Below are positions 11,122-62,426 of a stretch of DNA of 64,000 bases, one piece after another; position 1 is the first letter of the stretch, and each line of letters starts with the position of its first letter. The notes under the pieces were generated by a model. That model saw only the letters and a list, made by a program, of their open reading frames with translations. It searched no databases and had not been told where the DNA came from. This DNA comes from a virus. A program made the position numbers and the translations under genes. The DNA is taken from IMG/VR virus record IMGVR_UViG_3300037478_000343, positions 4,180 through 68,179 of that record. One strand, 5' to 3'.

Positions 11122-11786
11122 ACACACTGGATATAGTTGCCTACAAGGGCGACGTAGAACTCGAGGAGTCCCGATGGTGTAACGCATGGGGCATGACCGT
11201 AAAGGTCAAGCTGGAGCAGCGGCCCCACGAACTGAATGCGGCGAACCCATTTAAGAAGTACAGCAGGATGCGCAAGAACAGGGTTGGCACGAGATTTCAG
11301 GCCGTGTTCGCTGCTGGCGAGGACGACATCTCGTACAACGACGAGGTGATGCTTAAAGGCTGGTCTGACGGCACCACGGGCTGGAAGCTGACGCTCTGGA
11401 TACATGCAAACGATGACGGCCTGCATCCGTTCATGGATAGCCAGAAGGGCACCACGTACGGGCTGGTGATGGTCGAACTCGATGACGATAATGTCGCGAT
11501 AAATCAAAAGAAGAGAGACCGCGTTGAGGCCGCCAAGGACGCGCGGAAGCATGGATACCGGTTGTCGAGCTACGCGGCGATGCTGTGCCGTGAACCGCAG
11601 TTCATGCAGTGGCTGAATACCGGCCCACACGACGAGATCTTCGAGAGCGAGGAGCAGGTCGCCACATGGATGCGCAACCTACTGAGCATCGAGAGCCGCG
11701 CGGATCTGGATCACAGCGAGGCGAAGGCTCAGATGTTTCACGAGGAGGTAAGGAAGCCGTACTCGAAATGGAGCGGGGAACGATGA
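11118..11786 (+). CDS. hypothetical protein (222 aa)
   Basis: ORF track. ATGA overlap with the upstream stop. Globular, protein-like composition. Confidence 0.55.
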   Translation: MNTLDIVAYKGDVELEESRWCNAWGMTVKVKLEQRPHELNAANPFKKYSRMRKNRVGTRFQAVFAAGEDDISYNDEVMLKGWSDGTTGWKLTLWIHANDDGLHPFMDSQKGTTYGLVMVELDDDNVAINQKKRDRVEAAKDARKHGYRLSSYAAMLCREPQFMQWLNTGPHDEIFESEEQVATWMRNLLSIESRADLDHSEAKAQMFHEEVRKPYSKWSGER

Positions 11787-11941
11787 TCAGAATTATCCTA
11801 ATGGCGCTGTTCTACCCGATCCTGGGGGTTTTAATTCTCGCGTTTCTGATCTTGCTGGGTATTGCGATCACCGGGCGCGTGATGTTTGCGTGTGCTGAGG
11901 AAGGGCTGGAGGAGCTATTGTGCGCTTTCCGACGACTGTAA
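11783..11941 (+). CDS. small hydrophobic membrane protein (52 aa)
   Basis: MIRIILMALFYPILGVLILAFLILLGIAITG... ATGA overlap with the stop of the preceding gene. Confidence 0.35.
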   Translation: MIRIILMALFYPILGVLILAFLILLGIAITGRVMFACAEEGLEELLCAFRRL

Positions 11942-12271
11942 AGGCTCACCACGATCGCGTGCGCGCGTGTAGATGTGTCGTGACCGCATCGCCACAAGTC
12001 ACCATTCACCATTGCCACGGCGGTTCGATGAAAGACGCTGGATTTCACTCTGGCGGTGCTCAGAGGGGAGTGGGGGAGGCGCTGGTGCTGCCTTTGAAAG
12101 CGGGGTTCCATTTCGGGGATAACGGTATCGACAACGGTGTCGGTGTCGAGACGTGGGAAATTTGGTACGGGACTCAGGTAGGGTTTTTGAAAGAGATTTC
12201 TGAGCTACTTGAGTATGATGTCTTCGAACTACACCGCCTTTGGGAAAAGGAGCCGCCGCCACGAGGATGAC

Positions 12272-12769
12272 ATGGAAGTCAAGATACGCCCATTAGTAGC
12301 AGGTCCGCGGCTCGAGATCGACGAGCAGAAGGAAGCGTGGAAGTGGCTGGCCAGCGTTCAGGTTGGTGACAAGTGCCTTCAAGACTACAGCTTTATGTGC
12401 CCTAACGGCACCCAGCTAGCCGGCGGCCGCAACCGCCGTGCGCAATACATGTCGAGCCTGAAGGCGCAGGGATTCAAGACCGGCGTCAGCGACCTTGTGA
12501 TTGCTTATCCGGTCGGAGAGTTCCATAGCGGAGATTACCCCGGTGGCGCGTTCCATGGCGCCTATATTGAGCTGAAGCGTGTGCGGGAGGCATTCAAGGG
12601 ACCCGCGGCCTTGGCGGCCAGCGTCAGTGAGGACCAAAAGGGCTGGCTTCGGCTGATGGCCTCGGTCGGCTACTGGGTGTACGTGGCGTACGGCGCGGAA
12701 GACTTTAAGGTTGCCGTCAGATCGTACCTGCAAAGAAAAAATCAGCCACCCCTTGATTTTTCTCTGTGA
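12272..12769 (+). CDS. VRR-NUC domain nuclease
   Basis: GVSDLVIAYPVGEFHSGDYPGGAFHGAYIELKRV...KGWL fits the VRR-NUC (PD-(D/E)xK) pattern. In-frame ATG at 12272 (MEVKIRPL) within track ORF 12209..12769. Confidence 0.65.
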   Translation: MEVKIRPLVAGPRLEIDEQKEAWKWLASVQVGDKCLQDYSFMCPNGTQLAGGRNRRAQYMSSLKAQGFKTGVSDLVIAYPVGEFHSGDYPGGAFHGAYIELKRVREAFKGPAALAASVSEDQKGWLRLMASVGYWVYVAYGAEDFKVAVRSYLQRKNQPPLDFSL

Positions 12770-14066: not shown

Positions 14067-14315
14067 ATGCTCGCACCACACAGCGTCTATGGCTACGTGT
14101 CCGAGAAAGACATCGAGGAGGCCATCGAAAAGAGGCTGAGGACCACCGGCGCCGACAAGAAGGACGTTCTGGCGTCGCTGCTTGGGGAGGCCATCAACAC
14201 TCTCTTGAAGATTAACTCAGCGATACCCATCAGCTCACGACACCGGCACCTGATCTCGGGTCCGATGGAAGAATTTGCGAATGGCAGCGGCAAAGAAACA
14301 TATCCGACATCCTAG
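14067..14315 (+). CDS. hypothetical protein (82 aa)
   Basis: ATG at 14067 with a GAGGAGG RBS. Track ORF 14064..14315. Confidence 0.45.
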   Translation: MLAPHSVYGYVSEKDIEEAIEKRLRTTGADKKDVLASLLGEAINTLLKINSAIPISSRHRHLISGPMEEFANGSGKETYPTS

Positions 14316-15135
14316 TAGGGGTCGCGAAACGATCTGCGGACGGATGTCGGTAACGTTCGCCGCGAAGGACGGTGATGCGACTTGCGGTGTGTGCCGGTCG
14401 ATGGCGACGAACGGAAACCTTGAGAAGCTACGGCTGAACGACTCCAAGGAGAAGTTTCCCGGCGCCAACCAGAGCGGCAATCCCCGCATGACGGACCTGC
14501 AGAAGGCATTTGCAGCTCATCCTCTGGTGACGACCAACCCACGTCGCGCGGCGATTGAGGTTGGTTACAGCGAGTCCTACGCAGAGGATCACGCGCACGC
14601 GCTCAGGAAGCAGTTGTCGTTCGCCATTATCGCGAACCAGGAGGAGGCCAGGAAGCTATCTGCAATTTCGGCTGCTCGAGTGCAGCAGGAGCTTGCATCG
14701 ATGGGATTTGCAAATATTTTGGATTACTACGATGTTTGCGCTGAGACCGGGGAAGCCACCCCGAAGCAACTGAACGAACTGACGCGCGAGCAAGCGGCGG
14801 CCGTTCAGGAGGTAGAGATGTTGGAAATCGAGGATGCTGATGGCACTAAGAGAAAGGTGCTGGGGCGCATCAAGCTCACGGACAAGCGTGCGGCATTGGT
14901 TGAACTGGGAAAAACCATTGGACTTTTCAACAAATTTACCATTGAGGACCGCCGGCAGAACACGCTAGACCTTGAGCAGGTACCTACCGAGGACCTTGAG
15001 AAGGTCGAACGGTACCTGTTGAACGCCGCCCGCAAGACGCGGGACAAGATCGACAATCATGAGGCCATACCTGGCGAATACGCCGAGGCCGGGACATTAC
15101 TAGAGGGGCCACAGGATGGCGGTCAAGAAAACTGA
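14281..15135 (+). CDS. terS: terminase small subunit (Terminase_2 / P27-like); start uncertain (14281-14488)
   Basis: MTDLQKAFAAHPLVTTNPRRAAIEVGYSESYA...KLTDKRAALVELGKTIGLF matches the Terminase_2 small-subunit pattern, including the conserved C-terminal KLxDKxxALELLGKxLGxF-like segment. Confidence 0.75.
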   Translation: MAAAKKHIRHPSRGRETICGRMSVTFAAKDGDATCGVCRSMATNGNLEKLRLNDSKEKFPGANQSGNPRMTDLQKAFAAHPLVTTNPRRAAIEVGYSESYAEDHAHALRKQLSFAIIANQEEARKLSAISAARVQQELASMGFANILDYYDVCAETGEATPKQLNELTREQAAAVQEVEMLEIEDADGTKRKVLGRIKLTDKRAALVELGKTIGLFNKFTIEDRRQNTLDLEQVPTEDLEKVERYLLNAARKTRDKIDNHEAIPGEYAEAGTLLEGPQDGGQEN

Positions 15136-23615: not shown

Positions 23616-23831
23616 TTGGCCTATATTTGTTTTGTGAAAAAAAATAGCCATCTCATTGCGCTCCTGTTGCTGTCCTTGGTAGTGTCGGGTTGTGCCTCAA
23701 AACTGAGCGCACCGCACCCACACGAGTTGGAGTACGAGAAATGCAAGATGCGCGGCGGCATTCTCATCACGACCGGGACCGCCGGCAGGCTCAGGACGGA
23801 GCCATGGACGGTACAGTGCGTTCGACGTTGA
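23616..23831 (+). CDS. possible small lipoprotein (start uncertain: TTG 23616 or GTG 23634)
   Basis: ...KKNSHLIALLLLSLVVSGCAS: signal peptide with lipobox VSGC. Overlaps an alternative-frame ORF. Confidence 0.3.
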   Translation: MAYICFVKKNSHLIALLLLSLVVSGCASKLSAPHPHELEYEKCKMRGGILITTGTAGRLRTEPWTVQCVRR

Positions 23832-24608: not shown

Positions 24609-24836
24609 GTGATTCAAGCCGTGACAGAAGCCGCTTCCCGGTTTCGTAAAAAGTACACCCTTGTCATTCTCATGTTCGTGAGCGGCACCACGCTTGCGTT
24701 CCTTCAGACATGGACGGCCGAGGATTACCGCTGGTTCTGCATCGTGCTGCTGGCGATCTTCGGGCCCATGGACCTGGCAGACAACGGCACCCTGCCGTGG
24801 GGCAACTCGAAGAGCAAGGAAGCACCAAAAGCATGA
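24609..24836 (+). CDS. small membrane protein (about 75 aa, two hydrophobic segments)
   Basis: Within track ORF 24567..24836. GTG start chosen so the first TM is included. Stop overlaps the next ATG (ATGA). Confidence 0.3.
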   Translation: MIQAVTEAASRFRKKYTLVILMFVSGTTLAFLQTWTAEDYRWFCIVLLAIFGPMDLADNGTLPWGNSKSKEAPKA

Positions 24837-26788
24837 ATCGACTGATCCGACATCTTGCCGGCGGCTTGCTGCTGTCTGTTGCTCTGGCGTTCGTGTCTAT
24901 TCAGACCAACGTAGAGTTTCTGGGCGGAGGTATCGACGTAAGCATCAGCAGCGACGCCCATGCGCTGCTGGTCAAAAAGCAGCTCGCGGAAAACCCGGAC
25001 GGCACTCGGGATACGGCGTTCCCGACCGGCAACAAACCGATCGGTGGGAGTGTCTGTTCGACGTGGACCTGCGATGATTTCGGCGCGGCCGTGGCCGACA
25101 TCGACGAGGATTCGGCGACGCAAGTTACCCTCGCTGTGGATTCTCCAACGGATGAAGGAGAGATCGGACTAGCTTATAAGTCGTTTGCCAGCGGCGACAT
25201 CAATGCGCGCGCCCTGCTGCCAGCAATTGCATCGTGGGACGGATACACGGGGCATAATTTTACAGGCGTCGGTGTCGGCATTCGGGAGACGACAGAAGTC
25301 AATCCGGAGGATGACTATTTTGCTCAGTGCTGGCTACCGAAGACTGGCGGACTGAGATGCAAATACGGAACGCCAGGCAATACTTCAAACTTCACAGGCG
25401 AGCTATCGGAAGTCGGTCCGATACATACTGTGGCGCAGTATGACGAGAGCGCAACCGATCTAAAGTTCGGCTATTCATCTGACGGGAACACATTCACGCA
25501 ACTCGGCGAGACGGTCGACAAGACGCTCACTTGCACTGTCTCCGACCCCTGTCTGGGTTATGCGTTTGTCACTTCGCACGCCACTGGTCAGACGACCATT
25601 CTCAGCGTTACGGAGTTTACGGCCAACTCCACGCTGACAAATATTGGCGCGCCTCCAACTGATCCGGGACCGCGTCAGGTTTTTGCCTCGATCAATTTCG
25701 AGAGCGGCCAGCTACAGGCAAACGGTACTGACCCGGACGGCGTGTTCCTGGCAACCCTGCCGGAGCCTCAGACCGATACCAATGCTTGCCCGCACATCGG
25801 TACTTTTTCGAGTGGCGGGGATACGCTGGTCAAGCAATGCAGTATAGGCAGCGGTGGCGCGGGGCCATTGACGAGCATAGATGCTCGCGTGGCTGCCTCC
25901 GACACCGTGCCGGCAAGCGGCAATGGCGGCGGTGCAGAGGTAGTAAACCCGAGAGCGGGCGACTTTTTCTTTCGGAATGCAATTTACTTCGGCAAGGATT
26001 ATTCGCAATTCACCGGTAACAGTCTGAAAAACAAGCCCCGCGTCACCATGGTGCAGAACAACACGTATCGCACTACTTTCGACAAGGAGGGCTATACCTC
26101 GATCTCTGTCTACTTGCCGGAGAATTTCGAGCACGAGACTGGCAAGAAGGGAGATGTCGGCAGAAATAACATCCTGAACATGTCCAATGCTCAGGCGTTT
26201 TTTGCCATTCAGTATTTTGTTCCGACAGCCGGCACGGTCGCACACTGGCATCTACAGAGGAACGACAGCGACAGCACAACTGATTGGAACGACACGCCCA
26301 ACATCTATACCGACATAGGATCTGTCGTTCCCGATCTTGGCAAATGGACAGATTTTATCATCCGCTGGCTATGGAATCCCGCCAGAAGCGGGCAGGGCTA
26401 TGCGTGTCCTCGCAACTTTACGTCTGCCCCTGCTGTTTCTGGCGCGATCAATGCGTCCTACGATTGTGACGTGGGCATTTTGCAAGTGTGGAAATCGACC
26501 GGAGATCCCGATGTAAACGGTGACCGGCAGATGGAGCTTGTCCATAGTCAGTTGAATACCATGGTCGGGCTTGTGCCACTAGCGAGCCAGCCGTTAATTG
26601 CACACAGCATCCGTCAGTACAAGTTCGGATGGCATTCGCAGCCGACAGATGTCGCTGGCCCGATCTGGCACGGCTATGATGAGATTTATTGGGGCGAGGT
26701 CGTGCGAGACGGCACCACCTGGCAGGACGTGCATCCGACGCAGAAGGCGTGCGCGGATATCGCGGTTGAGCCTCTGGATTGTCCATGA
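24833..26788 (+). CDS. secreted protein (651 aa) with Sec signal peptide; C-terminal region resembles a jelly-roll lectin or polysaccharide-lyase-like domain
   Basis: MNRLIRHLAGGLLLSVALAFVS signal peptide. Thr/Ser/Gly/Asp/Asn-rich, beta-rich. C-terminal W/Y/H-rich segment (...AIQYFVPTAG...HWHLQ...YKFGWHSQ...IWHGYDEIYWGE). ATGA coupling to the upstream gene. Confidence 0.7.
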   Translation: MNRLIRHLAGGLLLSVALAFVSIQTNVEFLGGGIDVSISSDAHALLVKKQLAENPDGTRDTAFPTGNKPIGGSVCSTWTCDDFGAAVADIDEDSATQVTLAVDSPTDEGEIGLAYKSFASGDINARALLPAIASWDGYTGHNFTGVGVGIRETTEVNPEDDYFAQCWLPKTGGLRCKYGTPGNTSNFTGELSEVGPIHTVAQYDESATDLKFGYSSDGNTFTQLGETVDKTLTCTVSDPCLGYAFVTSHATGQTTILSVTEFTANSTLTNIGAPPTDPGPRQVFASINFESGQLQANGTDPDGVFLATLPEPQTDTNACPHIGTFSSGGDTLVKQCSIGSGGAGPLTSIDARVAASDTVPASGNGGGAEVVNPRAGDFFFRNAIYFGKDYSQFTGNSLKNKPRVTMVQNNTYRTTFDKEGYTSISVYLPENFEHETGKKGDVGRNNILNMSNAQAFFAIQYFVPTAGTVAHWHLQRNDSDSTTDWNDTPNIYTDIGSVVPDLGKWTDFIIRWLWNPARSGQGYACPRNFTSAPAVSGAINASYDCDVGILQVWKSTGDPDVNGDRQMELVHSQLNTMVGLVPLASQPLIAHSIRQYKFGWHSQPTDVAGPIWHGYDEIYWGEVVRDGTTWQDVHPTQKACADIAVEPLDCP

Positions 26789-28602
26789 ATCGTTTCGGTC
26801 TCTTATCTTTGTTGCTTATTAGCACATCCGCGTTGGCTGATGTTGCTGTCGTTGGAACGCCGAATGCCAGTGTGGCGGATGGGGGTTCGTATACTTGTGA
26901 AACTGGATCTGATCGCGCTTGCATCTGGGTGCCGGCTTATCGTCTAACAGGAACTTTCCTCGACTTGCAGTCCGCAACCTATGGCGCTGCGTCGATGGCG
27001 ATACAGGCCGAAGCGACAAACTCGACCGTTGGCAGTAACGGACAAGGTATCGCTCTGGCGCATTTGCTGGAAGCAGCTATTCCAGGCGGCTCTAATATTT
27101 TCACAGGAACCTGGGATACTCCGCCGGGCTTTACCATTGGAGCAGCTTTTACTCTTTCTGGCATAGATCAATTTACGCCGATTGTCGATTTTGATGTACA
27201 AACCGGTACCGGTGCGAGCGATGCTGTTATTTCCAATCTCTCGGTGGTTGAGGGTGGAATCGCGATTTTTGGTGTCGTGACCAATGCCGGGATTACCAGC
27301 GTTCCATCGGGGCATACGGCTATATGGGACAACGTGCTGATCGACGGTGGATCGGTTGAAACGTCCCTTTCCTATATATTGAATTCTGCAGATGGAACGG
27401 AAACCTCGACTTGGACTAAAGGTACCGGCGTCTGGTGGGCGTTTGGAGTTTCTTACGCTCCGGCAGGAGCAGTGGCCACACCGGATTTTGATTCCGGCCC
27501 GACGCTGGATTCCGTTACTGCAAGCAGCATCACGCTGGATTACGACGCCAATGCCGATGCTGAGAACGTTCAGTGCATGGCGACGGACACGGCTGCAGCG
27601 GCACCAACAGCCGCAGCGATCGAGGCACAGACTGGCTCGCATGGCTATGCGACGGAAGTAACGACCGGCAGCGCTGACACCATCACGGTCGATATCACCG
27701 ATGCGCAGGTGTTTCCTCTCTACGACGTGCATTGCATGGTCGAGGAAGGAACGAGTAATTACAGTGCTGTCGTAACGGTCAGCGATATTGCAATGACCGC
27801 GCCCACGGGCAAGCAATTTGCCGAAATAACCTCGATCGGCACCGGCAGTCCTTGCGAGGATTTCAATACCGCGACCAATCCGGATATCGCAGCCGGGGAT
27901 TACCTGCGAGCCGACAACACGACTACTCCGGGCTCTTATGCCCTGACGATCAGCGCGGCCTGTCAGTTCATCTATACCGGTGACGATAGCCAGCAAACGG
28001 CACTGGATACGCTGGTGTACGACCTGTCGGCCGGCGATTATCACGCGGATGACATTGATTTCGTCTCGAACAACCACGCGCCGGTCTGCGAGGAAGAAAC
28101 GCTCGTCTATGTTTTTGACGAAGATGTGGCAATTGATGAGATTGATTTCAATGCGGTCTGTGAAGACGAAGATCCATCTGACACACTGACGTTTGCGGTT
28201 ACGGCTGGAATCCTGCCGAATGGTCTGACGCTAAGTAGCGCCGGAGTGCTCAGCGGTACGCCAGATACTGAAGACGAAGCGGGTGTTGCGATCACAGCCG
28301 AAGCCTGCGATCAGTGGGACGATTGCGATACCTTCTCCCCCTTTTTGTACGTAGTGAACACTGTGACTCTGCCGAACTACGTTGGGGGAAGTCTGGCAAG
28401 TGCCACAAGCGCCCACGCGGCGGCATTCCCTTGGCAGAATGAGGAGCTTTCGTTGATCGCAACGTTCAGTTGCTCAGATGAGGCTGCCAACGAGGTCATC
28501 AGTCAGGACCCTGTTGCCACTACTGAGGTTACGGCATTCGATGGAGTGTCGATAAAGGTTTCGAGCGGCCGCACATGTTCCGCCATCAGGAGACGACGTT
28601 GA
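26785..28602 (+). CDS. secreted protein (605 aa) with Sec signal peptide, FN3-like and cadherin-like (He_PIG) domains
   Basis: MNRFGLLSLLLISTSALA|DV signal peptide. PTLDSVTASSITLDYDA (FN3-like). LPNGLTLSSAGVLSGTPDTEDEAGV (He_PIG/dystroglycan-type cadherin-like motif). ATGA overlap with the upstream stop; same ATGAATCG start context as the previous gene. Confidence 0.7.
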   Translation: MNRFGLLSLLLISTSALADVAVVGTPNASVADGGSYTCETGSDRACIWVPAYRLTGTFLDLQSATYGAASMAIQAEATNSTVGSNGQGIALAHLLEAAIPGGSNIFTGTWDTPPGFTIGAAFTLSGIDQFTPIVDFDVQTGTGASDAVISNLSVVEGGIAIFGVVTNAGITSVPSGHTAIWDNVLIDGGSVETSLSYILNSADGTETSTWTKGTGVWWAFGVSYAPAGAVATPDFDSGPTLDSVTASSITLDYDANADAENVQCMATDTAAAAPTAAAIEAQTGSHGYATEVTTGSADTITVDITDAQVFPLYDVHCMVEEGTSNYSAVVTVSDIAMTAPTGKQFAEITSIGTGSPCEDFNTATNPDIAAGDYLRADNTTTPGSYALTISAACQFIYTGDDSQQTALDTLVYDLSAGDYHADDIDFVSNNHAPVCEEETLVYVFDEDVAIDEIDFNAVCEDEDPSDTLTFAVTAGILPNGLTLSSAGVLSGTPDTEDEAGVAITAEACDQWDDCDTFSPFLYVVNTVTLPNYVGGSLASATSAHAAAFPWQNEELSLIATFSCSDEAANEVISQDPVATTEVTAFDGVSIKVSSGRTCSAIRRRR

Positions 28603-29267
28603 AAAGACTATGGCTATTGCTGCTTCCCGCCATCGCAGGAGCGGATCAGAACATCACTCGTGACTACGGCGTATCGACCACGATTAACACATGCCTGGCG
28701 GTCTATGCTGACCCGGTGGATTTCGAGGCTTCTGCGACATTCGAGGCCGGCGATGTCGTGGTCATGAAGGATGAGGGTACGCCTGCAAACATCGGAACTT
28801 TGCCGACAGACGAGGGAACCTGCTATTCGATACCGTTGACCGCCACGGAAATGCAGGCCGAGCGAGTCACGGTCACTCTGGTTGACCAGACTGGTACCAA
28901 GGTGTGGATGGATCATGCCATCTATATCGAGACTTACGGCGATGCGTCGAGCCAGCATCCGGATATTGATCCGGCCACTGCCCAGCAAAGACTGGAAATA
29001 TTGCAGCGTGGCCTGTCCCAGAACGATACCACCATCGCCACGCTGGCCAGCCAGGTCAGCTTTACCCTCACCGCCGGCAGCTCCGACGACGATGCTTACA
29101 ACCCCTGCACGGCCATGATTACGGATCAGTCCACCGCTGAGCAGATCGCGATGGGTGACATCATGGACTACACCGGCAGCACCAAGACGGTATTGCTGCG
29201 GTTTGATCCGGGCATTTTCACTATGGCCACAGGCGATCTGGTTACGATCACCTGTCTGGGGCGGTAA
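28575..29267 (+). CDS. secreted beta-rich protein (230 aa) with signal peptide
   Basis: ...KRLWLLLLPAIAGA|DQ signal peptide. Thr/Asp-rich. Confidence 0.55.
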   Translation: MFRHQETTLKRLWLLLLPAIAGADQNITRDYGVSTTINTCLAVYADPVDFEASATFEAGDVVVMKDEGTPANIGTLPTDEGTCYSIPLTATEMQAERVTVTLVDQTGTKVWMDHAIYIETYGDASSQHPDIDPATAQQRLEILQRGLSQNDTTIATLASQVSFTLTAGSSDDDAYNPCTAMITDQSTAEQIAMGDIMDYTGSTKTVLLRFDPGIFTMATGDLVTITCLGR

Positions 29268-29269
29268 CC

Positions 29270-29830
29270 ATGTGGTGGGTTAAATCAGGGTCGGTCGACC
29301 GAAAGATTCCCTTCAACATGGGAGATATTGGACTGTCCAGCTTCACCGTGTACCGCTCACGCAACGGCGGCACACCGGCGGCCATGACCAGCCCGACCAT
29401 CGACGAGTTGGACGACACCAATATGCCGGGTGAATACGCCGTGACATTTGACGAGGACACCACCATGGACGCCGGTAGCATTACGGAACCGATGGTGCTG
29501 ATGGTCTCGCATGCCGGTGTCGCTCCGGTACGGATCGAGGTGACCTTGTTCAACAACCTGCCATCGGACATCGTTCTGGTCAACGGCGCGGCAACCGGGG
29601 TCATCCTCGGAGAGGCCGAGACTGGCACCCTGTCGACAACCCAGATCACATCTGACCTGACCGGCTTTACCGCTGACCAGCTCGAAGGCCGAAGACTGGT
29701 GGTGATCGGAGGGCCGGCAGAGGGCGAGTCGCGCGCCATTGATGCCTACGTCGAGTCCGGTGGCCTGATCACTTTCGCCGAGGCCATGACCGTCGCGATG
29801 GAAGACGGGGACCCGTTCAAGATCGTCTAA
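29270..29830 (+). CDS. beta-rich protein (186 aa), paralogous to the C-terminal region of the preceding protein, no signal peptide
   Basis: Shared pattern ...GTPA...PTxDE...VTL... between the two proteins. Confidence 0.5.
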   Translation: MWWVKSGSVDRKIPFNMGDIGLSSFTVYRSRNGGTPAAMTSPTIDELDDTNMPGEYAVTFDEDTTMDAGSITEPMVLMVSHAGVAPVRIEVTLFNNLPSDIVLVNGAATGVILGEAETGTLSTTQITSDLTGFTADQLEGRRLVVIGGPAEGESRAIDAYVESGGLITFAEAMTVAMEDGDPFKIV

Positions 29831-31712: not shown

Positions 31713-32291
31713 ATGCAGGCTTTCGACTTCCTAAATGACCTCATGCAGTGGCTGGGCGAACTGGCGCCGCGGTGGGATTTGTTGGAGCCTACTCACGGCG
31801 GGGTCAAATTCAAGTGGCGGGGCAAGGTTTCGCAACTGACTCCGGGACGCATTTACTGGTGGTGGCCTGTTACTACTAAGGTCAGAACAATACCGATCAA
31901 GCGCCAGACAATGGTGATCGGACAGCGCCTGACCACCAAGGATGAAATATCCGTGGCGGCCAACATCGTGGTGGCATACGTGATTGACGACGTGACTCTG
32001 GCCCTTGTAGAGACCATAGACCATAGCGACACCATTGGTGAGATTGCCCAGAAGCTAACGATCAAGCCCCTGATGGGCCGCACCTTCGACGAAATTATCA
32101 CGGACATGGCAGACAACAACAACATGCGAAACGAATGCACGCGGGAGGCCAAGAAGCTTCTGCGGGAATACGGTGTGGGGGTGCTTGATGCGTACGTGAG
32201 TGACTTTACCGAGACAACGGTGTTTTCTCACGATGGGGACGGGATGGTGATCAACCGAGGATACGAGCATGGCGAGGAAGACTATTCGTAG
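31713..32291 (+). CDS. SPFH/band-7 (stomatin/prohibitin-like) domain protein
   Basis: VIGQRLTTKDEISVAANIVVAYVIDDVTLALVETIDHSDTIGEIAQKLTIKPLMGRTFDEIITDM...AKKLLREYGVGVLDAYVSDFTE follows the SPFH domain pattern. Confidence 0.6.
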   Translation: MQAFDFLNDLMQWLGELAPRWDLLEPTHGGVKFKWRGKVSQLTPGRIYWWWPVTTKVRTIPIKRQTMVIGQRLTTKDEISVAANIVVAYVIDDVTLALVETIDHSDTIGEIAQKLTIKPLMGRTFDEIITDMADNNNMRNECTREAKKLLREYGVGVLDAYVSDFTETTVFSHDGDGMVINRGYEHGEEDYS

Positions 32292-32547: not shown

Positions 32548-34194
32548 TTGAGTGCCGCTGCCCCCGTCCAAAACCTAACCCAGATTCAGGCCGAGCTTGC
32601 ACGGCGTGATCAGTATCGTTTTTTCAAGGACGCGTGGACAATCATGGACCCCGCGCCGTTCCACGATACGTGGCATCTTGAGGTTATCTCCGAGTTCCTG
32701 ACCTACGTGACGCTGGGAGACATCACTCGCCTAGTCGTCAGCATGCCGCCTCGCATGACAAAAAGTTTAATGTGTTCAGTCAGTTGGTGCGTATGGTCCT
32801 GGGTGCAGAACCCCAAACTGCAGTTCCTCACCGCCTCCTACGACCTCGATCTGTCCAAGCGAGATACCCTGAAGTCTCGCCGCCTTATTGAATCTGCATG
32901 GTTCCAAGAGCGATGGGGTAGAGAATTCAAGCTATCCGCCGACGAGAACATGAAGGGCCGCTACTCGAACACCAAGGGTGGTCACCGGATCGCCATCACG
33001 TCTGGCGGTAAGACTACCGGGGAGGGGGGCGATGTCATCCTGATCGACGACGCGCACAACGCGAGAGAAGTTTACTCCGATGTAAAGCGTGAGGGCGTGC
33101 TGGAGTGGTACGACAACGCTATGCGATCCCGCCTGAACAACCAGAATACCGGCGCCATCGTGCATGTCGGCCAGAGAACACACGAGGGCGACGTGATCGG
33201 GCATGTGCTCAGGAAGGAGGGCAAGGTCCAGCTCAACGACGACGGTAAGTGGGTGCATCTGGTTCTGCCGAACGAGTACCGCCCGAGTAAGCGCTGCGTG
33301 GTGTACCTACCGAAGGATGTGAAGCGCTCCAAAGAGGACCCTGACTTTGAGCCAGTTCCGATCTTCGAAGATCCGCGCCAAAAAGAGGGCGAGCTTCTGT
33401 GCCCAGGCAGGCTGGGTAAGGAGGCGACAAACGCGCTGAAGCCGCCTCACGGCATGAGTGAGCGAGACTACAACTCTCAGTACCAGCAGGACCCCGCGGC
33501 CGACCAGGGTCTCATCCTCAAAAAGCACTGGTGGCAGCCGTGGGTATATCCGGAATGGCATCCGCACCACCACCGGCGACGAGAGATGCCGAAGTGCGAG
33601 ATGTTGATCCAGATTTACGACACCGCGTTCGAGACCGAGGAGGAGAACGACTACTCGGCTCGGACCACATGGGGCGTGTTCACGTATTCGCCGGAGTCCA
33701 TGCATCACCAGACTCGCGCCATACTCAAGGGAAAGCCAAAGAGATGCGCCATTCTGGTCGAGGCATGGCGGGACAAGATCGCGTTTCCGCAGCTCAGGCG
33801 GGAGGCGATCCGCGCCTACAACAAGATGGACCCAGATATGGTTCTGATCGAGAAGAAGGCGTCGGGGCACTCCCTGATTCAAGAATTGAGGCAGTCCGGG
33901 GTGAGGGTCAAGGCCGTCGACCCCAAGGGCAAGGACAAGGTGCTGCGCGCCCACGTGAGTTCGGCGCCACTGGAACAGGGATGCATATTCTACGTGCCCG
34001 GCCACAACGAGGCGAACGACGTAATTGAGGAAGCGTCGAAATTTCCGATGGGCATCAACGACGACTATGTCGACACCGTGGTCATGATGCTGGCGTACCT
34101 GAGGCGGATGGGCTCGATTGAGTACTTCGACGAGGAGGACGACAACGAGCTTAATTTGTTCAAGCCCCGCAGGGAAAGGGGCATCTATGGCTAG
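32548..34194 (+). CDS. terL: terminase large subunit (start uncertain)
   Basis: N-terminal ATPase region (FKDAWTIMDPAPFHDTWHLEVISEFL...LVVSMPPRMTKS Walker-A-like ...VILIDDAHN Walker B) and a C-terminal RNaseH-like nuclease region, typical of Terminase_6-type TerL. 548 aa. Confidence 0.85.
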   Translation: MSAAAPVQNLTQIQAELARRDQYRFFKDAWTIMDPAPFHDTWHLEVISEFLTYVTLGDITRLVVSMPPRMTKSLMCSVSWCVWSWVQNPKLQFLTASYDLDLSKRDTLKSRRLIESAWFQERWGREFKLSADENMKGRYSNTKGGHRIAITSGGKTTGEGGDVILIDDAHNAREVYSDVKREGVLEWYDNAMRSRLNNQNTGAIVHVGQRTHEGDVIGHVLRKEGKVQLNDDGKWVHLVLPNEYRPSKRCVVYLPKDVKRSKEDPDFEPVPIFEDPRQKEGELLCPGRLGKEATNALKPPHGMSERDYNSQYQQDPAADQGLILKKHWWQPWVYPEWHPHHHRRREMPKCEMLIQIYDTAFETEEENDYSARTTWGVFTYSPESMHHQTRAILKGKPKRCAILVEAWRDKIAFPQLRREAIRAYNKMDPDMVLIEKKASGHSLIQELRQSGVRVKAVDPKGKDKVLRAHVSSAPLEQGCIFYVPGHNEANDVIEEASKFPMGINDDYVDTVVMMLAYLRRMGSIEYFDEEDDNELNLFKPRRERGIYG

Positions 34195-42972: not shown

Positions 42973-43683
42973 ATGGCTGCCTCTGGTGTCCACACTGTTT
43001 ACCAAATCACCAATCTGATACATGGCAAGCGCTACATCGGGGTTACCGTACGCCCATTCTCTGCGCGCCTGTCTAATCATTTCTCTGCCGCGAATTCCGG
43101 AAAGCAATCGCATCTGCACCGATCCATACGGAAGCACGGAAGGGACTTGTTTAGAGCCTCTATATTGAAGGTATGCAACTCGCGAGAGGAGATGTTGGCC
43201 GAAGAGATCCGTTTGATATCAGCCCTTCAGCCCGAGTACAACATGACAGACGGAGGTGAGGGGTGCATAGGCTATAAACACACCCCCTCTTTTATCCGGA
43301 ATAAGAAACTTCAGATGCTTGGCAACCAGAACAGGAGGGGCACCAAGACCAACCCTGAAGGCAGGCGTCGCATGTCTGAGGCCAAAAGGTTGGCGCCCGT
43401 CCGGTATTGGCTAGGCAAGGAGAGAGACGAGGAAACAAAAAGAAAGATGTCTGAATGCAGGATTGGCGTACCACGAACTCCGAGCGATCAGTATCACAAA
43501 TTCACTCCGGAAGAAATAGCCAACCGAGCAAAGAATACTGTATGTCTGAACGATGGACTGGCGTACCAGTCAGCCGCGGCTGCCGCGAGGCACTATGGAC
43601 TAAACAAGGAATCGGTAACATCTGTCTGCAATGGCAGGCGTAATGCTGTTTATGGCTTTAGGTTCGCATATGTCGAGCAGTAA
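42973..43683 (+). CDS. GIY-YIG homing endonuclease (I-TevI/Seg-like)
   Basis: VYQITNLIHGKRYIGVT (GIY...YIG), downstream R...H...E catalytic residues, several NUMOD/IENR-like basic helices. Lower GC than its neighbours. GGGGG RBS. Confidence 0.8.
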   Translation: MAASGVHTVYQITNLIHGKRYIGVTVRPFSARLSNHFSAANSGKQSHLHRSIRKHGRDLFRASILKVCNSREEMLAEEIRLISALQPEYNMTDGGEGCIGYKHTPSFIRNKKLQMLGNQNRRGTKTNPEGRRRMSEAKRLAPVRYWLGKERDEETKRKMSECRIGVPRTPSDQYHKFTPEEIANRAKNTVCLNDGLAYQSAAAAARHYGLNKESVTSVCNGRRNAVYGFRFAYVEQ

Positions 43684-45295: not shown

Positions 45296-45951
45296 TGGAA
45301 TATACCTACACCACATTGAGGTCAGCAATTCTTGCTTTCGCAGACGATCCAGGGTCGGAGTTCTCGGGACGGGTTGACGATTTTATAAGCAAGGGCGAAA
45401 CCAGATGCGTTCGAGACCTCGACCTCGAGAATAGCGAGCAGTGGGTAAATCTAACGATTAGCGAAAGCAGCCGCTCCGTGCCGAAGCCTACCGACGCCAT
45501 TCACGTTAACTCGGTGTTCATCAGGGACCCGGTCGATCTGGTGTGGGCCGAACTGCCGCGGCGCTCGTTCGAGTACCTGATTGTGTACGCGCCCACGGAG
45601 GCCACTGAGTCTGCGCCCGTGTACTTCGCCGAGGAAGACGAGGAGAACCTCTACCTCGCGCCGACCCCTGACCAGGACTACGTAAGCGGCAACGCCAAAT
45701 GTCGCGCGACCATCAGGCCCGAGGGTCTGTCCTCATCGAACGAGGAATCGTTCCTTGGTAATCACTACGGTGACCTTCTGTTCAACGCGGCCATGATAGA
45801 GGCCAAGGAGTTCCAGAAGTCAGAAGCTGGAGCCCGCTGGTACGCGGCCAAGTACGAGAGCCTTCTACCGAGCACGTCTAAGGAAATCGAGGATGCTCGA
45901 CGCAAGCGATATAAGAACCTAAACACCGGAAAACAAGGGGCAGATGACTGA
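45295..45951 (+). CDS. structural protein (218 aa)
   Basis: ORF track. Stop/start overlap. Confidence 0.5.
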   Translation: MEYTYTTLRSAILAFADDPGSEFSGRVDDFISKGETRCVRDLDLENSEQWVNLTISESSRSVPKPTDAIHVNSVFIRDPVDLVWAELPRRSFEYLIVYAPTEATESAPVYFAEEDEENLYLAPTPDQDYVSGNAKCRATIRPEGLSSSNEESFLGNHYGDLLFNAAMIEAKEFQKSEAGARWYAAKYESLLPSTSKEIEDARRKRYKNLNTGKQGADD

Positions 45952-46865
45952 TGCCAAGTACCTTCACAGATATCCTACGGCTTGAACTGCAGGCCGATGG
46001 CGAGAACGAAAACACGTGGGGCCAGAAGCTCAACGAAGTCGTCGATAAGCTCGAAACCGGCATTGCTGGACGCAAGGCAATCACGCTGGGAGCCAGCGAC
46101 GTAACCCTTACCACCAACAACGGTGGTGACGGTGACGACGAGCAGGCCGCGGCAATGATTCTGGACCTGACGGGCGCACTTTCTGCGAACGTCAACATCG
46201 TCGCGCCCAACAAATCCAAGATATATCTCATCAGGAACGGCTGCACACAAACCGCATCTGAGACCGTAAGCATCAAGACCGCCGATGGAGATGCACTTGA
46301 AATCCCAAACGGTTCTGCTTTCTTCGCGTGGTGCAATGGATCGGATGTGTTTCGAGGTGCGGCAAACGATGCATCAGGTCTTACGTCCGGAACCCTCTCC
46401 GACGACCGCCTGTCCGCGAACGTGCTAACGCCAAGTGTAATCGCCGCCCTGACCGCTCTAGACATTTCCGGCCTTGACGCAACTGACGGTATTTACATCG
46501 ACGACGCCGGTACCGCCAAGCGAATGGCGATACAGGACATGGGGGTGCGGGTCGTTGATCTTTCTACGACTCAGACCTTCGCGCTGGTCGATGCCAACAG
46601 CCTGCAAGTTCTTACCGGCAGCACGAACAGGGTATGGACCATTCCGGCAAACGCGACTGTCCCATTCAAGATCGGCGCAATTCTCTATGTGGCCGCACGT
46701 GATACCGCAAAGATCACGGTCACCGCAGCTTCTGGCGTAACGCTAACCAGCGCTTTTGCCAGTGGCGTCGCAGGCTCAATTGATGTCGTTCCCGGTGGCA
46801 CGGCTGCTTTTGTCAAGGTTGCTACGAACGAATGGATGGCCAACGGGGACATCGTTCCGGCATGA
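45951..46865 (+). CDS. structural/tail protein (304 aa)
   Basis: ORF track. TGATG overlap. Confidence 0.55.
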   Translation: MPSTFTDILRLELQADGENENTWGQKLNEVVDKLETGIAGRKAITLGASDVTLTTNNGGDGDDEQAAAMILDLTGALSANVNIVAPNKSKIYLIRNGCTQTASETVSIKTADGDALEIPNGSAFFAWCNGSDVFRGAANDASGLTSGTLSDDRLSANVLTPSVIAALTALDISGLDATDGIYIDDAGTAKRMAIQDMGVRVVDLSTTQTFALVDANSLQVLTGSTNRVWTIPANATVPFKIGAILYVAARDTAKITVTAASGVTLTSAFASGVAGSIDVVPGGTAAFVKVATNEWMANGDIVPA

Positions 46866-47278: not shown

Positions 47279-47710
47279 TTATTCGGTACAGTGCCAAACA
47301 TCGCGATCAGACCGCCATTCAAATGAATGGCAGGGCTTCTCTGTCGGTTGACCGCATAAACCTGAGTCACAGTTTTGATAAACCATATATCCGTGGTAAA
47401 CGGTTCCGCCGACTTGCCACCATCGACGCCATTTAGATGGCAGGGCAAGGCTTATTAGATAGTGAGATAGACCCAGCGTGGCGAAGTATTGCCATGTATC
47501 TGAAGTAGACGGATGCGCACCCAGCATTGACCGTGTGACTGGCTCGTGTTCTTCGATGCCGTCATGGTACTGAATGCGGGTGGTCGTGTATGCATCGGAG
47601 GCTATGGCCGAGACGTATGCTATTTCGTATAGCGTATCGGTTTTCGTCCAGTTTCCTGATGCGCATCCCGATACAAGAGCGAGTGAAAGTACGATGATTA
47701 TCCTGACCAT
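47279..47710 (-). CDS. lipoprotein encoded antisense within the tail module (moron; about 143 aa)
   Basis: MVRIIIVLSLALVSGCAS...: signal peptide with lipobox LVSGC. Strong AGGAGGT RBS. Only minus-strand gene in a 30-kb plus-strand block. Confidence 0.55.
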   Translation of the reverse strand: MVRIIIVLSLALVSGCASGNWTKTDTLYEIAYVSAIASDAYTTTRIQYHDGIEEHEPVTRSMLGAHPSTSDTWQYFATLGLSHYLISLALPSKWRRWWQVGGTVYHGYMVYQNCDSGLCGQPTEKPCHSFEWRSDRDVWHCTE

Positions 47711-61609: not shown

Positions 61610-61975
61610 ATGAAATTCCTAGAAAAGATCGTACCGCCCGGTGACCCATTTGCAACGTGGAGATTCTGGATCGCCATGTTCGTAGTGATGTTGTCTTTAA
61701 ACGGCCTGTCGGGCCGGGGATCAATATGGGGTCTGGGTCAGTATGCCTATGCATCTGACGTACAAGAGCAAGGCCGAAAGATAGATCAGCAGGGTAAGAA
61801 AATAGACCGGATTCTGACCCTGCAAATCGCATCCACATTGCGCTCGTTGAGGCAGGACGAATGTCGGTCAAATGGCAACAGATCGGTCATTCAGTCAACG
61901 ATAGAGGATTACCAGCAGCAAATGCTATCCATCACCGGTAACCGTTACCCATTGCCATCATGTGAAAAGACGTAA
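61610..61975 (+). CDS. candidate holin/lysis membrane protein (121 aa, one TM)
   Basis: TM segment WRFWIAMFVVMLSLNGL. Immediately precedes, and is translationally coupled to, the lysozyme gene. Confidence 0.4.
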   Translation: MKFLEKIVPPGDPFATWRFWIAMFVVMLSLNGLSGRGSIWGLGQYAYASDVQEQGRKIDQQGKKIDRILTLQIASTLRSLRQDECRSNGNRSVIQSTIEDYQQQMLSITGNRYPLPSCEKT

Positions 61976-62397
61976 TGGACCAGCACCTACTCAACAGTAT
62001 CAAGCTGCATGAGGGGCTTCGTCTTGAGGCTTATCTTGATAGTGAGGGGGTATGGACGATTGGTTATGGCCGGAATCTTCAGGTACTGAAGATCACAGCA
62101 GGACAAGCAGAAAAGTGGCTTCGAGAAGACATCGAGACGGCACACCTTGAGGCCGAGAGATTCCCTGAATGGGAATACCTTAATACTGTGGCGCGCCGGA
62201 ATGTTTTCGTTGAAATGGTGTTTAATTTGGGAGCCTCTCGCCTGAGAGGATTCGGGAAGATGCTGGAGGCGATTCGCTCTAGCGATTGGGCAGAAGCCGC
62301 CGTGCAAATGCTGGACTCTAAATGGGCTCGGCAAGTTGGGTATCGAGCTAAGTCTCTCTCGGGGGTAATGGAATCCGGGTCTTATGGTAACAACTGA
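61975..62397 (+). CDS. endolysin, T4-type lysozyme (GH24)
   Basis: LHEGLRLEAYLDSEGVWTIGYGRN... aligns with the T4 lysozyme catalytic Glu/Asp/Thr region. ATGG overlap. Confidence 0.85.
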   Translation: MDQHLLNSIKLHEGLRLEAYLDSEGVWTIGYGRNLQVLKITAGQAEKWLREDIETAHLEAERFPEWEYLNTVARRNVFVEMVFNLGASRLRGFGKMLEAIRSSDWAEAAVQMLDSKWARQVGYRAKSLSGVMESGSYGNN

Positions 62398-62426
62398 CCC
62401 CAAACCTTGAAAAAACCGGGGTTAGT

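Follow-up and report, generated by a model that had tools for sequence, protein, structure and literature searches.

Gene content and organization of the locus

The window (the whole stretch of 64,000 nucleotides analysed here) encodes TerL (32548-34194), portal, major capsid, nozzle and ejection proteins, a lysozyme and a spanin pair, a gene content that indicates a tailed phage with a Gram-negative host. A cluster of open reading frames occupies 24833-29830, 3 kb upstream of TerL, and the sequence-only reading was right to place it inside a phage genome. Its products are termed P1 to P4 here, and P0 denotes a small membrane protein encoded immediately upstream. The P1-P3 genes are co-oriented and coupled with the late genes. 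The features of the locus are as follows.

24609..24836, + strand: P0, small membrane protein of ~75 aa; GTG start, longest ORF from 24567; stop overlaps the P1 start (ATGA)
24820..29016, + strand: replaceable cassette; the nucleotide match to the related locus L006 (blastn) is interrupted here, with 80-82% similarity outside both ends
24833-26788, + strand: P1, 651 aa; leader, N-domain and C-domain
24833..24889, + strand: P1 signal-peptide-like leader, residues 1-19, MNRLIRHLAGGLLLSVALA; heuristic score 37.7, the highest in the window
24944..25732, + strand: P1 N-terminal domain, residues ~38-300; forms the N-terminus of 41 cluster representatives
25733..26788, + strand: P1 C-terminal domain, residues ~300-651; beta-jelly-roll of PL20/PL13 (PF14099) polysaccharide-lyase type
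26785-28602, + strand: P2, 605 aa; variable head, Ig-like beads including He_PIG, PASTA-like tail
26785..26838, + strand: P2 signal-peptide-like leader, residues 1-18, MNRFGLLSLLLISTSALA then D V; heuristic score 30.2; ATG overlaps the P1 stop (ATGA)
26839..27474, + strand: P2 variable N-terminal head, residues ~19-230; not conserved across the P2 family
27475..28164, + strand: P2 conserved core, residues ~231-460; Ig/FN3-like beta-sandwich and a Cys-containing region (SPCEDFN ... CQF ... WHADDIDF)
28165..28296, + strand: P2 He_PIG (cadherin-like Ig) domain, residues 461-504, containing LPNGLTLSSAGVLSGTP; Pfam PF05345
28363..28602, + strand: P2 C-terminal alpha+beta domain (527-593, PASTA-like, sub-threshold) and basic tail RRRR
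28599..29267, + strand: P3, probably 222 aa; leader, swappable N-domain (16-135), conserved C-domain (136-222)
29270..29830, + strand: P4, 186 aa; no leader, no cysteine; conserved with the right flank of the cassette

Every gene of the cluster had been described as coupled to its predecessor through an ATGA overlap. This holds for P0/P1 and P1/P2, which do share the start context proposed for genes 1 and 2 (ATGAATCG at both junctions), and fails for P2/P3 and P3/P4. At the P2/P3 junction, P3 begins either with TTG 28599, which has AGGAGA 5 nt before it and gives a TTGA overlap, or with ATG 28575, which gives an overlap of 28 nt; the AGGAGA ribosome-binding site of P3 is encoded within the C-terminal part of P2; P3 and P4 lie 2 nt apart, with no overlap. 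Because a 66%-identical relative aligns from the residue at the TTG start, P3 is probably 222 aa long, in place of the 230 aa given earlier.

Both flanking proteins are of uncertain membership in the module. In P0, one hydrophobic segment (YTLVILMFVSGTTLAFL) is clear and a second is weaker, and neither Pfam nor PHROGs yields a match. Its counterpart in L006 is 89% identical and forms the conserved left border of the cassette there, and L009 has a 99-aa ORF with two TM segments overlapping its P1-like gene, but P0 is missing from several module loci. P4 is 88% identical in L006, has no match in Pfam, PHROGs, NCBIfam or GenBank phages, and is probably cytoplasmic. It had been taken for a paralogous domain without a signal peptide; the leader is indeed absent, and paralogy to P3 finds no support at the sequence or profile level (BLASTP E = 1.6; hhalign probability 0.1%, two-sequence profiles).

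Leader peptides and cysteine pattern of P1-P3

A Sec leader was defined by a positively charged n-region, 8-16 uncharged residues forming a hydrophobic core, and a cleavage motif with small residues at -3/-1. The N-termini of P1, P2 and P3 each show all three elements, with the predicted cut in P3 falling between MKRLWLLLLPAIAGA and D. Leaders were scored with our own crude heuristic, not SignalP; at a permissive setting, the heuristic flags 13 of the 84 ORFs. A score of >=24 was reached by only four of the 84 greedy ORFs, namely the adjoining P1, P2 and P3 (24.6 for P3) and one lipoprotein ORF; thus, by this crude measure, the canonical signal peptides claimed for P1-P3 are borne out. The cleavage site of P1 is ambiguous (MNRLIRHLAGGLLLSVALA, then F). 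Its leader aligns as a homologue of its relatives' leaders, and the conserved mature start of P1 homologues falls at P1 residue 44, after AHA, leaving P1 with an extra linker of 22-24 aa. P1 could be a membrane-anchored protein.

The leaders are conserved beyond the window. They are kept in all nine of the complete P2 relatives (9/9) despite differing mature N-domains, and in 32/41 P1 N-domain relatives, most of the exceptions forming a distinct leaderless subtype. The replacement proteins in L006, L009, L010, L012, L001, L002 and L004 also carry leaders, the P2 relatives in L006, L009, L010 and L012 have comparable ones, and a small leader-bearing protein follows P2 in L006, L009, L010 and L011 as well.

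Cysteine content follows the same division. P1 and P2 contain 12 cysteines each and P3 contains four, arranged in neighbouring pairs (32/75 and 170/219 in P3), which amounts to 1.8-2.0% of P1-P3 residues against 0.35% in 16 structural proteins (5.5-fold, Fisher p = 1.8e-9). The cysteine count is even in 29/30 leader-bearing P1 relatives (binomial p = 6e-8), and their mean cysteine content is 2.21%, compared with 0.87% in seven leaderless relatives (p = 6e-5). In the leaderless relative from Marinobacter phage PS6, A and V stand at the positions of P2 C38 and C46. The paired, even cysteines lend independent support to export and suggest adaptation to an oxidising compartment.

The lysis genes of the window, a lipobox o-spanin, an i-spanin, a lysozyme and a holin-like gene, lie at 61.6-63.1 kb and form a canonical set, so that the lysis genes are found elsewhere than the P1-P3 cluster. 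The spanin pair marks the host as diderm, and exported P1-P3 would consequently reach at least the periplasm. Taken together, the conserved leaders, paired cysteines, cysteine-poor leaderless relatives and diderm host support the earlier suggestion of export in place of cytoplasmic assembly into virions, and we infer from these sequence features that all three almost certainly leave the cytoplasm.

Domain architecture of P1, P2 and P3

The N-domain of P1 contains the cysteine-bearing motif NPDGTRDTAFPxGNKP..C.TWTC, followed by a beta-sandwich region with a probable ConA-like fold. It has no sequence match in Pfam or PDB, and its counterparts in L006 and L004 match DUF1349 weakly, at 17-18 bits, below the cut-off. 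Among the 41 representatives, this domain is fused elsewhere to PF14099 (12), He_PIG (9), a beta-helix (2) or PL14 (1).

For the C-terminus of P1, the earlier guess of a jelly-roll or lyase region proved sound. The domain is a PL20/PL13-type beta-jelly-roll superposable on a solved PF14099-type member. P1 itself scores 17-18.7 bits against PF14099, below the Pfam gathering score of 29.9, and the family is matched by 16/20 P1 homologues (best E 1.3e-8) and by 12/41 P1 N-domain proteins (E down to 8.9e-16). P1 retains the conserved Y390, Y596, R403, R565 and K554, and with them most invariant polar residues of the lyase-like family; a few conserved positions depart from the family consensus, among them L513, where 19/20 relatives have Arg. 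P1 thus looks like a polysaccharide lyase, with activity and substrate predicted from homology.

P2 is modular. Its head is 43% identical in L001, is poorly modelled by AF2, and in one homologue is represented at the same position by Laminin_G_3. In the core, C357 and C393 are invariant and C459 near-invariant across the P2 family. An FN3-like module had been proposed for P2; the AF2 model does contain an Ig-like beta-sandwich at residues 235-345 (pLDDT 82-93), and Pfam returned no fn3 match. Foldseek searches with the P2 model retrieved Ig-like arrays of cadherin, RTX-adhesin and SraP, i.e., generic Ig, cadherin and FN3 folds. The predicted He_PIG domain was recovered outright (PF05345, 29.4 bits against a gathering score of 24). 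The AF2 model places an alpha+beta unit at residues 530-600, and the P2 C-terminus scores 13.8 bits against PASTA (PF03793), below the gathering score of 23.2. Its split-off counterpart in L004 exceeds that score (28.9 bits), two P2 homologues have precomputed PASTA matches, and the R-rich C-terminus is kept across the P2 family.

The two parts of P3 have different relatives. The leader and N-domain are 66% identical to a 258-aa protein in L010, and L006 retains the last 83 aa at 92% identity next to a replaced N-part.

Cassette exchange and distribution

L006 belongs to a close relative with flanks of 80-95% nucleotide identity and a different cassette at the same site, in which the first leader-bearing protein is another one, of 812 aa, P2 is 35% identical and P3 has a different N-part. 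Among related, distant podophages, the module occupies three different genome positions: between the portal and scaffold genes, before the tail adaptor gene, and upstream of TerS. A tblastn search of 50,697 GenBank phages returned no match for P1, P3 or P4, and only the P2 head weakly matched a hypothetical tail-region protein in two Marinobacter phages; the module is absent from cultured phages. No relative of P2 turned up among 185,579 species genomes, which leaves the module without known prophage copies.

Function of the module and alternative explanations

Among the functions proposed in the sequence-only reading, a secreted non-virion depolymerase/adhesin set fits best, because P1 has a PL20/PL13-type fold and other proteins join its N-domain to PF14099, PL14 or beta-helix domains. 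We lean, with a little better than even confidence, towards P1-P3 being a Sec-exported, disulfide-bonded, non-virion module that targets glycans. The three proteins would be made late and sequentially from translationally coupled genes, pass through Sec into the Gram-negative periplasm and fold there with disulfide bonds. P1 would be the depolymerase, joining a ConA-like carbohydrate-binding domain to a PL20/PL13-type beta-jelly-roll lyase directed at an acidic (uronic-acid) polysaccharide of the envelope or matrix. P2 would form an Ig-like rod whose variable, lectin-like head binds glycan and whose PASTA-like, arginine-rich tail binds peptidoglycan or another conserved partner, and P3 would be the small two-domain adaptor of a putative complex. 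The module may work on the host's own polysaccharide from the periplasm, and after lysis may persist as a free, stable enzyme. Stripping or masking the surface glycan would prevent superinfection, keep progeny from being trapped on debris and clear the surrounding matrix. Exchange of the cassette between phages would follow from the need for specificity to match strain-specific glycans. Sec delivers proteins only to the periplasm, and the proposed polysaccharide substrate is not obviously available there.

P1-P3 might instead be virion receptor-binding fibres or depolymerases, exported in order to fold with disulfides and calcium and docking on finished particles after lysis. We consider this unlikely, although several observations favour it. 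Leaderless relatives of both P1 and P2 occur in phages, and one is encoded where the tail-gene region of Marinobacter phage PS6, a cultured siphovirus, ends; this points to a tail-fibre ancestry and makes a virion role conceivable. In L002, the module is flanked by the head genes on one side and by the tail adaptor and nozzle genes on the other, and in L004, a leader-bearing 480-aa protein carries GLANVENTALSTWAGS, which we take to be a tail-fibre-like motif. Cassette exchange among close relatives is typical of host-range proteins, and the P3 C-domain and the whole of P4 are kept while upstream parts are swapped, as for an adaptor chain docking on a conserved structure. However, we know of no precedent in tailed phages for such two-compartment assembly. 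The position of the module varies between genomes, unlike that of core tail genes; the cluster does not lie at a conserved position in the tail module, and that module already holds a separate tail-fibre-like gene (45951-46865). PHROGs yielded no structural-protein match for any of P1-P4, and P4, the sole candidate for a cytoplasmic docking partner, bears no detectable relation to virion proteins. A related proposal, that the leader-bearing, Cys-rich and leaderless, Cys-poor versions record evolutionary compartment switching, with the exported proteins docking after lysis through the P3 C-domain or P4, strikes us as improbable. Equally doubtful is an auxiliary or conversion function in which the infected or lysogenic cell degrades external acidic polysaccharide as food. 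Stand-alone, leader-bearing relatives of the P1 lyase domain (~380 aa) are common in metagenomes, RecT is encoded in the window and is compatible with a temperate lifestyle, and prophage CAZymes with signal peptides have been reported (~5% of 64,678; PMC13507307). Against this, no integrase or repressor was found in the scanned parts of the window, no transporter or sugar-catabolism genes accompany P1-P3, the species genomes searched contain no P2 relative, and the cluster is coupled with late genes and runs in their orientation. The exchange of one cassette for another between close phages also fits strain-specific surface glycans better than nutrient polymers.

Two further explanations keep P1-P3 in the envelope. 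P2 and P3, with P1 acting as a lectin, could mask an envelope receptor or peptidoglycan in the periplasm and so exclude superinfecting phages non-catalytically, the lyase-like domain being inactive. The predicted export, the adhesin-like Ig array and PASTA-like tail of P2, the variable head domains and the departure of P1 from consensus at a few conserved positions (e.g., L513 for Arg) are all consistent with such a role. Yet P1 keeps most invariant polar residues of its family, and its N-domain is repeatedly paired with different depolymerase-type domains, suggesting that catalysis matters. Known exclusion proteins, such as T4 Sp and Imm, Sim of phage P1 and T5 Llp, are small and non-enzymatic, and no exclusion- or defence-family match was found in Pfam, PHROGs or NCBIfam. 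We therefore hold this, too, to be an unlikely account. Accessory lysis, in which the exported enzymes take apart an additional polysaccharide layer (capsule, sheath or holdfast-like) from inside as a step after endolysin and spanins, seems very unlikely. The coupled membrane protein P0 upstream recalls a holin-then-enzyme layout, the enzyme appears to be exported, and the canonical lysis set, complete for a diderm host, is without a function for outer polysaccharide layers. That set is nevertheless 32 kb distant, P0 is not a constant companion of the module, and P2 and P3 have no obvious part in lysis.

Comparison with known systems

With the glycan-targeting module as the favoured interpretation, the closest enzymatic counterpart of P1 is the PL20 endo-beta-1,4-glucuronan lyase of Trichoderma reesei (PDB 2ZZJ) and the PF14099 group, which includes PL13 heparinase I and relatives. 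The link is at family level, through the 16/20 homologues, and P1 shares with these lyases many conserved Arg, Lys and Tyr, as expected for an acidic polysaccharide. Unlike 2ZZJ, to which it is 15% identical, P1 has ~130 extra residues, an added N-terminal ConA-like domain and six cysteine pairs, and is phage-encoded. Like tailspike-borne or soluble phage depolymerases, P1 is a phage-encoded, predicted glycan-degrading enzyme that is cassette-swapped between close relatives, and its carrier domain is combined with alternative catalytic domains, beta-helix included. Known phage depolymerases are cytoplasmic, mostly right-handed beta-helix trimers with genes in the tail module, whereas P1 has a Sec-type leader, paired cysteines and two further leader-bearing partners, and lies outside the tail module.

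Phage genes for carbohydrate-active or unknown proteins with Sec signals have been described before, as the prophage CAZymes (PMC13507307) and the unexplained signal-peptide genes of Porphyromonas phages (PMC10367356) illustrate. In contrast to those single prophage genes, P1-P3 constitute a three-gene, translationally coupled, exchangeable module with matching leaderless twins in other phages, and without a detected integrase in the scanned sequence. T4 Sp, Sim of phage P1 and T5 Llp resemble P1-P3 in being phage-encoded and, by prediction for P1-P3, envelope-exported and not virion parts; P1 and P2, at 600-650 aa, differ in being multi-domain, and no sequence or fold relation to those proteins was found. 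A relative from a cultured phage is the 732-aa protein of Marinobacter phage PS6 (MF959998.1, ATN93305.1), whose N-terminal 140 residues share 30% identity with the mature P2 head (pairwise E 6e-12). That protein differs from P2 in its lack of a leader and of both head cysteines, and its remainder is unrelated.

Phage depolymerases and receptor-binding proteins are usually regarded as cytoplasmic virion parts. Judging from the P1-P3 module, some phages may export an enzyme together with its binders as a complete set that would fold in the periplasm and act off the particle. A leader together with an even, paired cysteine count provides a sequence signature by which exported and cytoplasmic versions of one phage protein can be told apart. 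The module is also relevant to virome surveys in which genes of this kind are classed as 'metabolic'. The P1 family represents a new group of PL20/PL13-like lyases, present only in uncultured phages, that could serve as capsule- or biofilm-degrading enzymes, and the module offers a test case for how phages handle host surface polysaccharide during and after infection.

Genomic setting and organization of the gene cluster

The window belongs to a 74.7-kb metagenomic phage contig whose TerL (32548-34194) shares 41% identity with its counterpart in Roseobacter phages CRP-901/902, pelagiphage HTVC023P being more distant. TerL is followed by the portal and major head protein genes, a homing endonuclease gene and genes for tail and virion proteins, as well as by those for a nozzle-like protein, an acetyltransferase, an ejection protein and a giant 2327-aa protein. 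The early region encodes RecT together with a helicase and primase. The scanned parts of the window showed no integrase, and a tRNA search found none.

Several neighbors deserve mention in their own right. The homing endonuclease (42973-43683, plus strand; PHROG 314, E 2.8e-44; GIY-YIG/HNH type) sits among head and tail structural genes. No small terminase was recognized beside TerL, and a 286-aa Terminase_2 (small subunit) protein (14275-15135, plus strand, E 2.4e-16) is encoded 17 kb away in the early/replication region. Immediately 5' of TerL is an SPFH/Band 7 protein (31713-32291, plus strand, E 1.9e-12), an unusual neighbor for packaging genes. The 2327-aa protein (54624-61607, plus strand) comes after the ejection-protein genes and has no PHROGs matches other than to families of unknown function; it is presumably an oversized internal or ejection protein.

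The cluster considered here comprises four consecutive, co-oriented genes (P1-P4) and, ahead of them, that of a small membrane protein (P0):

about 24609-24836, co-oriented with P1-P4: P0, small membrane protein of about 75 aa
24833-26788, co-oriented: P1, 651 aa
26785-28602, co-oriented: P2, 605 aa
28599-29267, co-oriented: P3, 222 aa
29270-29830, co-oriented: P4, 186 aa

The sequence-only reading had every gene coupled to its predecessor through an ATGA overlap; such overlaps occur at P0/P1 and P1/P2, whereas the P2/P3 junction reads TTGA and a 2-nt gap separates P3 from P4. The start context it described for P1 and P2 is indeed common to both (ATGAATCG). P3 may start at TTG 28599, which overlaps the TGA stop of P2 and has AGGAGA 5 nt upstream, or at ATG 28575, giving a 28-nt overlap with P2; the TTG start is favored because the alignment with a 66%-identical relative on the related phage contig L010 begins at the MKRL/MRRL residue. 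Scans for promoters and terminators near the cluster gave results at or below chance level. About 1 kb upstream, a 71-aa ORF (23616-23831, plus strand) has a lipobox leader (LLLLSLVVSGC) and an N-terminus 61% identical in the close relative L006, its call being uncertain because a longer ORF overlaps it in another frame. Together with P0-P3, it would make the region rich in envelope-targeted products.

Evidence for export and oxidative folding of P1-P3

P1, P2 and P3 had been proposed to carry signal peptides, and our own simple leader test (not SignalP), which scores an n-region with net positive charge, 8-16 uncharged hydrophobic residues in a row and a small residue at both -3 and -1, agrees, with scores of 37.7, 30.2 and 24.6, respectively. 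Of the 84 greedy ORFs in the window, the only other one to score 24 or more is a lipoprotein ORF at 47279-47710 on the opposite strand. The heuristic alone is modest evidence, since a permissive setting flags 13 of the 84 ORFs; much stronger evidence comes from leader conservation, cysteines and a matched pair with a Marinobacter phage PS6 protein. Comparable leaders are present in all nine database relatives of P2, though the next 200 residues are mutually unrelated, and in 32 of 41 proteins with the P1 N-terminal domain, where most leaderless exceptions form a distinct subtype that starts ~35 residues deeper in the domain and is without the C..TWTC motif. Every replacement of P1, P2 or P3 in related loci bears a leader, as do extra small proteins in L001 (134 aa), L002 (186 aa), L004 (480 aa), L009 (120 aa) and L011 (117 aa). 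The leaders have neither a lipobox cysteine nor a twin-arginine motif, ruling out lipoprotein and Tat targeting of P1-P3.

Across 16 structural proteins of this phage, cysteine accounts for 0.35% of residues; in P1-P3 the share is 1.8-2.0% (Fisher p = 1.8e-9). There are 12 in P1 (75/80, 166/176, 234/240, 319/336, 525/545, 640/650), 12 in P2 (38/46, 264/317, 357/393, 435/459, 508/514, 563/598), four in P3 (32/75, 170/219) and none in P4. The count in the mature part is even in 29 of 30 leader-bearing P1 relatives (binomial p = 6e-8) and in 9/9 P2 relatives, and mean cysteine content is 2.21% in those 30 versus 0.87% in seven leaderless P1 relatives (Mann-Whitney p = 6e-5). The 732-aa PS6 protein has a leaderless N-terminus that shares 30% identity with the mature P2 head, and P2 SYTCETGSDRACIW aligns with PS6 SYTAAAGSNRAVVV; therefore, the cysteine pair travels with the leader. 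From these sequence patterns we conclude that P1-P3 probably fold outside the cytoplasm.

The canonical lysis and tail-fiber candidates sit elsewhere in the genome:

45951-46865, downstream of TerL: tail-fiber-like gene, 304 aa
61975-62397: lysozyme (PF00959), in the lysis cassette (61610-63102)
within the lysis cassette (61610-63102): holin-like gene, 121 aa
62626-63102, minus strand: i-spanin, overlapping the o-spanin
62427-62723, minus strand: o-spanin, with an LSGC lipobox

A spanin pair with a lipobox indicates that the host has two membranes (diderm), so that the destination of P1-P3 would be at least the periplasm. P0-P1 as the holin and endolysin of the phage was ruled out, given the lysozyme, holin-like gene and spanins at 61.6-63.1 kb. 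The 143-aa ORF at 47279-47710 (minus strand), with a textbook lipoprotein leader (MVRIIIVLSLALVSGC) and no Pfam or NCBIfam match, lies inside the tail-gene module between the tail-fiber-like gene and a 604-aa virion protein, a moron-like placement; it could be an exclusion lipoprotein.

Domain architecture of the cluster proteins

P1 consists of an N-terminal (about 38-300) and a C-terminal module (about 300-651). By itself the C-terminal module falls below the Pfam cut-off for PF14099, the class of PL20/PL13-type polysaccharide lyases, which 16 of its 20 homologues match (best E 1.3e-8). Its AF2 model, built with 20 sequences, has a pLDDT of 87.6 and a pTM of 0.88, and the invariant Tyr, Arg and Lys of the family are kept with few departures (L513 versus Arg in 19/20 relatives). 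We regard it as a lyase-type fold and a putative enzyme. The N-terminal module has no Pfam match and no PDB sequence match; its counterparts in L006 and L004 show weak matches to DUF1349 (ConA-like). Among 41 proteins its fusion partners are PF14099 (12), He_PIG (9), right-handed beta-helix (2), PL14 (1) and fn3 (1), which marks it as a carrier or binding module to which different polysaccharide-degrading domains can be joined. Searches of PDB by sequence and by profile returned nothing useful for either P1 domain or for the P1-like proteins of L006, L002, L004 and L009; BFVD matches were ConA-like, weak and generic only. A word-indexed homologue search recovered P1 itself alone, and one with the N-domain alignment, whose variability is too high for scanning genomes, gave no match.

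P2 comprises a variable head (19-230), an Ig-like sandwich (235-345, confident model), a conserved Cys-containing region, He_PIG and an alpha+beta C-terminal unit, ending in a conserved Arg-rich tail. The He_PIG motif suspected from the sequence is real by profile score (29.4 bits against a cut-off of 24). The C-terminal unit is PASTA-like (13.8 bits in P2, 28.9 bits in its split-off L004 counterpart). Foldseek returned cadherin, RTX-adhesin and SraP arrays, generic matches only because the full-length model is poor (pLDDT 65). A PEP-CTERM or sortase signal was ruled out as the reason for the RRRR tail, as no hydrophobic segment precedes it. No relative of the P2 family was found in 185,579 species genomes (one genome per species), which therefore offer no prophage or host clues. 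In L004 (8926-11289) and also L005, the P2 homologue stops after He_PIG and PASTA occupies a separate leaderless 124-aa ORF behind a 30-aa ORF, an arrangement that could reflect gene splitting, a frameshift or faulty assembly. This L004 ORF and several P2 C-termini have in common an FGFGFG-like motif that follows the Arg cluster.

P3 has two domains, and each half recombines independently of the other: the N-half is 66% identical in L010 and the C-half 92% identical in L006. No close viral relatives of P3 were found. P4 lacks a leader and shows no recognizable homology to P3 or any annotated protein, so its earlier description as a paralogue is not supported. PHROGs and NCBIfam gave zero matches for P0-P4, P1, P3 and P4 had no match in 50,697 GenBank phage records, and P4 as an anchor for further cassette variants in metagenomes recovered nothing.

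Cassette exchange and genomic contexts

The IMG/VR contig L006 is 80-95% identical to the window in nucleotide sequence on both flanks, with no nucleotide similarity from 24820 to 29016. In this slot, L006 has in place of P1 a different, leader-bearing 812-aa protein with a ConA-like domain and a C-terminal domain without a useful PDB match; its P2, which starts by GTGA coupling and bears a leader, shares just 35% identity, and its P3 has a different N-half with the leader and 4-nt coupling retained. The most similar P1/P2 pair is that of L001 (P2 core 63% identical), where the gene order differs from that of the window. A P1-like gene followed by P2 with a 1-4 nt overlap occurs in three different genomic contexts:

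L001: between the portal and scaffold genes
L002/L003: between head genes and tail adaptor and nozzle genes
L004/L005: upstream of the small terminase, adjoining methyltransferase and TnpB (OrfB_IS605) genes that lie just upstream of the module

The pair is also present on contigs L008-L012. Leaderless, cysteine-poor P1-like versions exist in other phage contigs (L013 177-3886, L015 1517-4161 and L014); in L013, the next gene overlaps such a gene by 4 nt, is likewise leaderless and resembles the head of the P2 relative P0010. Leader presence or absence seems to change in all genes of the module together. Adjoining the module in L004, the leader-bearing 480-aa protein (11305-12747; no PHROGs, Pfam or NCBIfam match) contains DVGLANVENTALSTWAGS, which we take to be a typical motif of phage tail-fiber proteins.

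Possible roles of the module

As an observation the module has good support, namely three coupled genes with products predicted to be exported and of the disulfide type, a lyase-type fold, an Ig-like adhesin architecture, cassette exchange and a diderm host. Among phage CAZymes, those with signal peptides are a documented minority, at 5% of 64,678 in prophages (PMC13507307), and signal-peptide genes were noted, unexplained, in Porphyromonas phages (PMC10367356). In the literature we found no description of a multi-gene, translationally coupled, exchangeable exported phage module, of its pairing with leaderless twins, or of a PL20-like lyase family in phages, and the module was not found in any cultured phage.

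Docking of P1-P3 on virions after lysis would fit the tail-region relatives and the way in which the P3 C-domain and P4 are conserved; we consider it unlikely, as the genome position of the module varies, the window has another fiber gene and no precedent is known. Masking of a receptor by non-catalytic means seems no likelier. A metabolic or conversion function serving the host is a little less probable again, with no integrase found in the scanned parts of the window, no prophage copies among the 185,579 species genomes and no transport or catabolic partner genes. An accessory lysis step appears the least likely of these roles.

On balance, we lean slightly towards an exported module that targets, outside the cytoplasm, an acidic polysaccharide in the envelope or matrix of the host. 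It would act from the periplasm, or as free enzyme after release by lysis, so that glycan would be stripped or masked and the matrix cleared. With its conserved PASTA-like tail, P2 may be held by a conserved anchor, for example peptidoglycan. Extracellular-type domains like these depend on disulfides, and often on calcium; export may therefore mainly serve the folding of P1-P3. Under the proposed action on envelope or matrix glycan, P2 through its variable head and P1 through its variable catalytic domain would keep pace with strain-specific glycans, and this would explain cassette exchange between close relatives.
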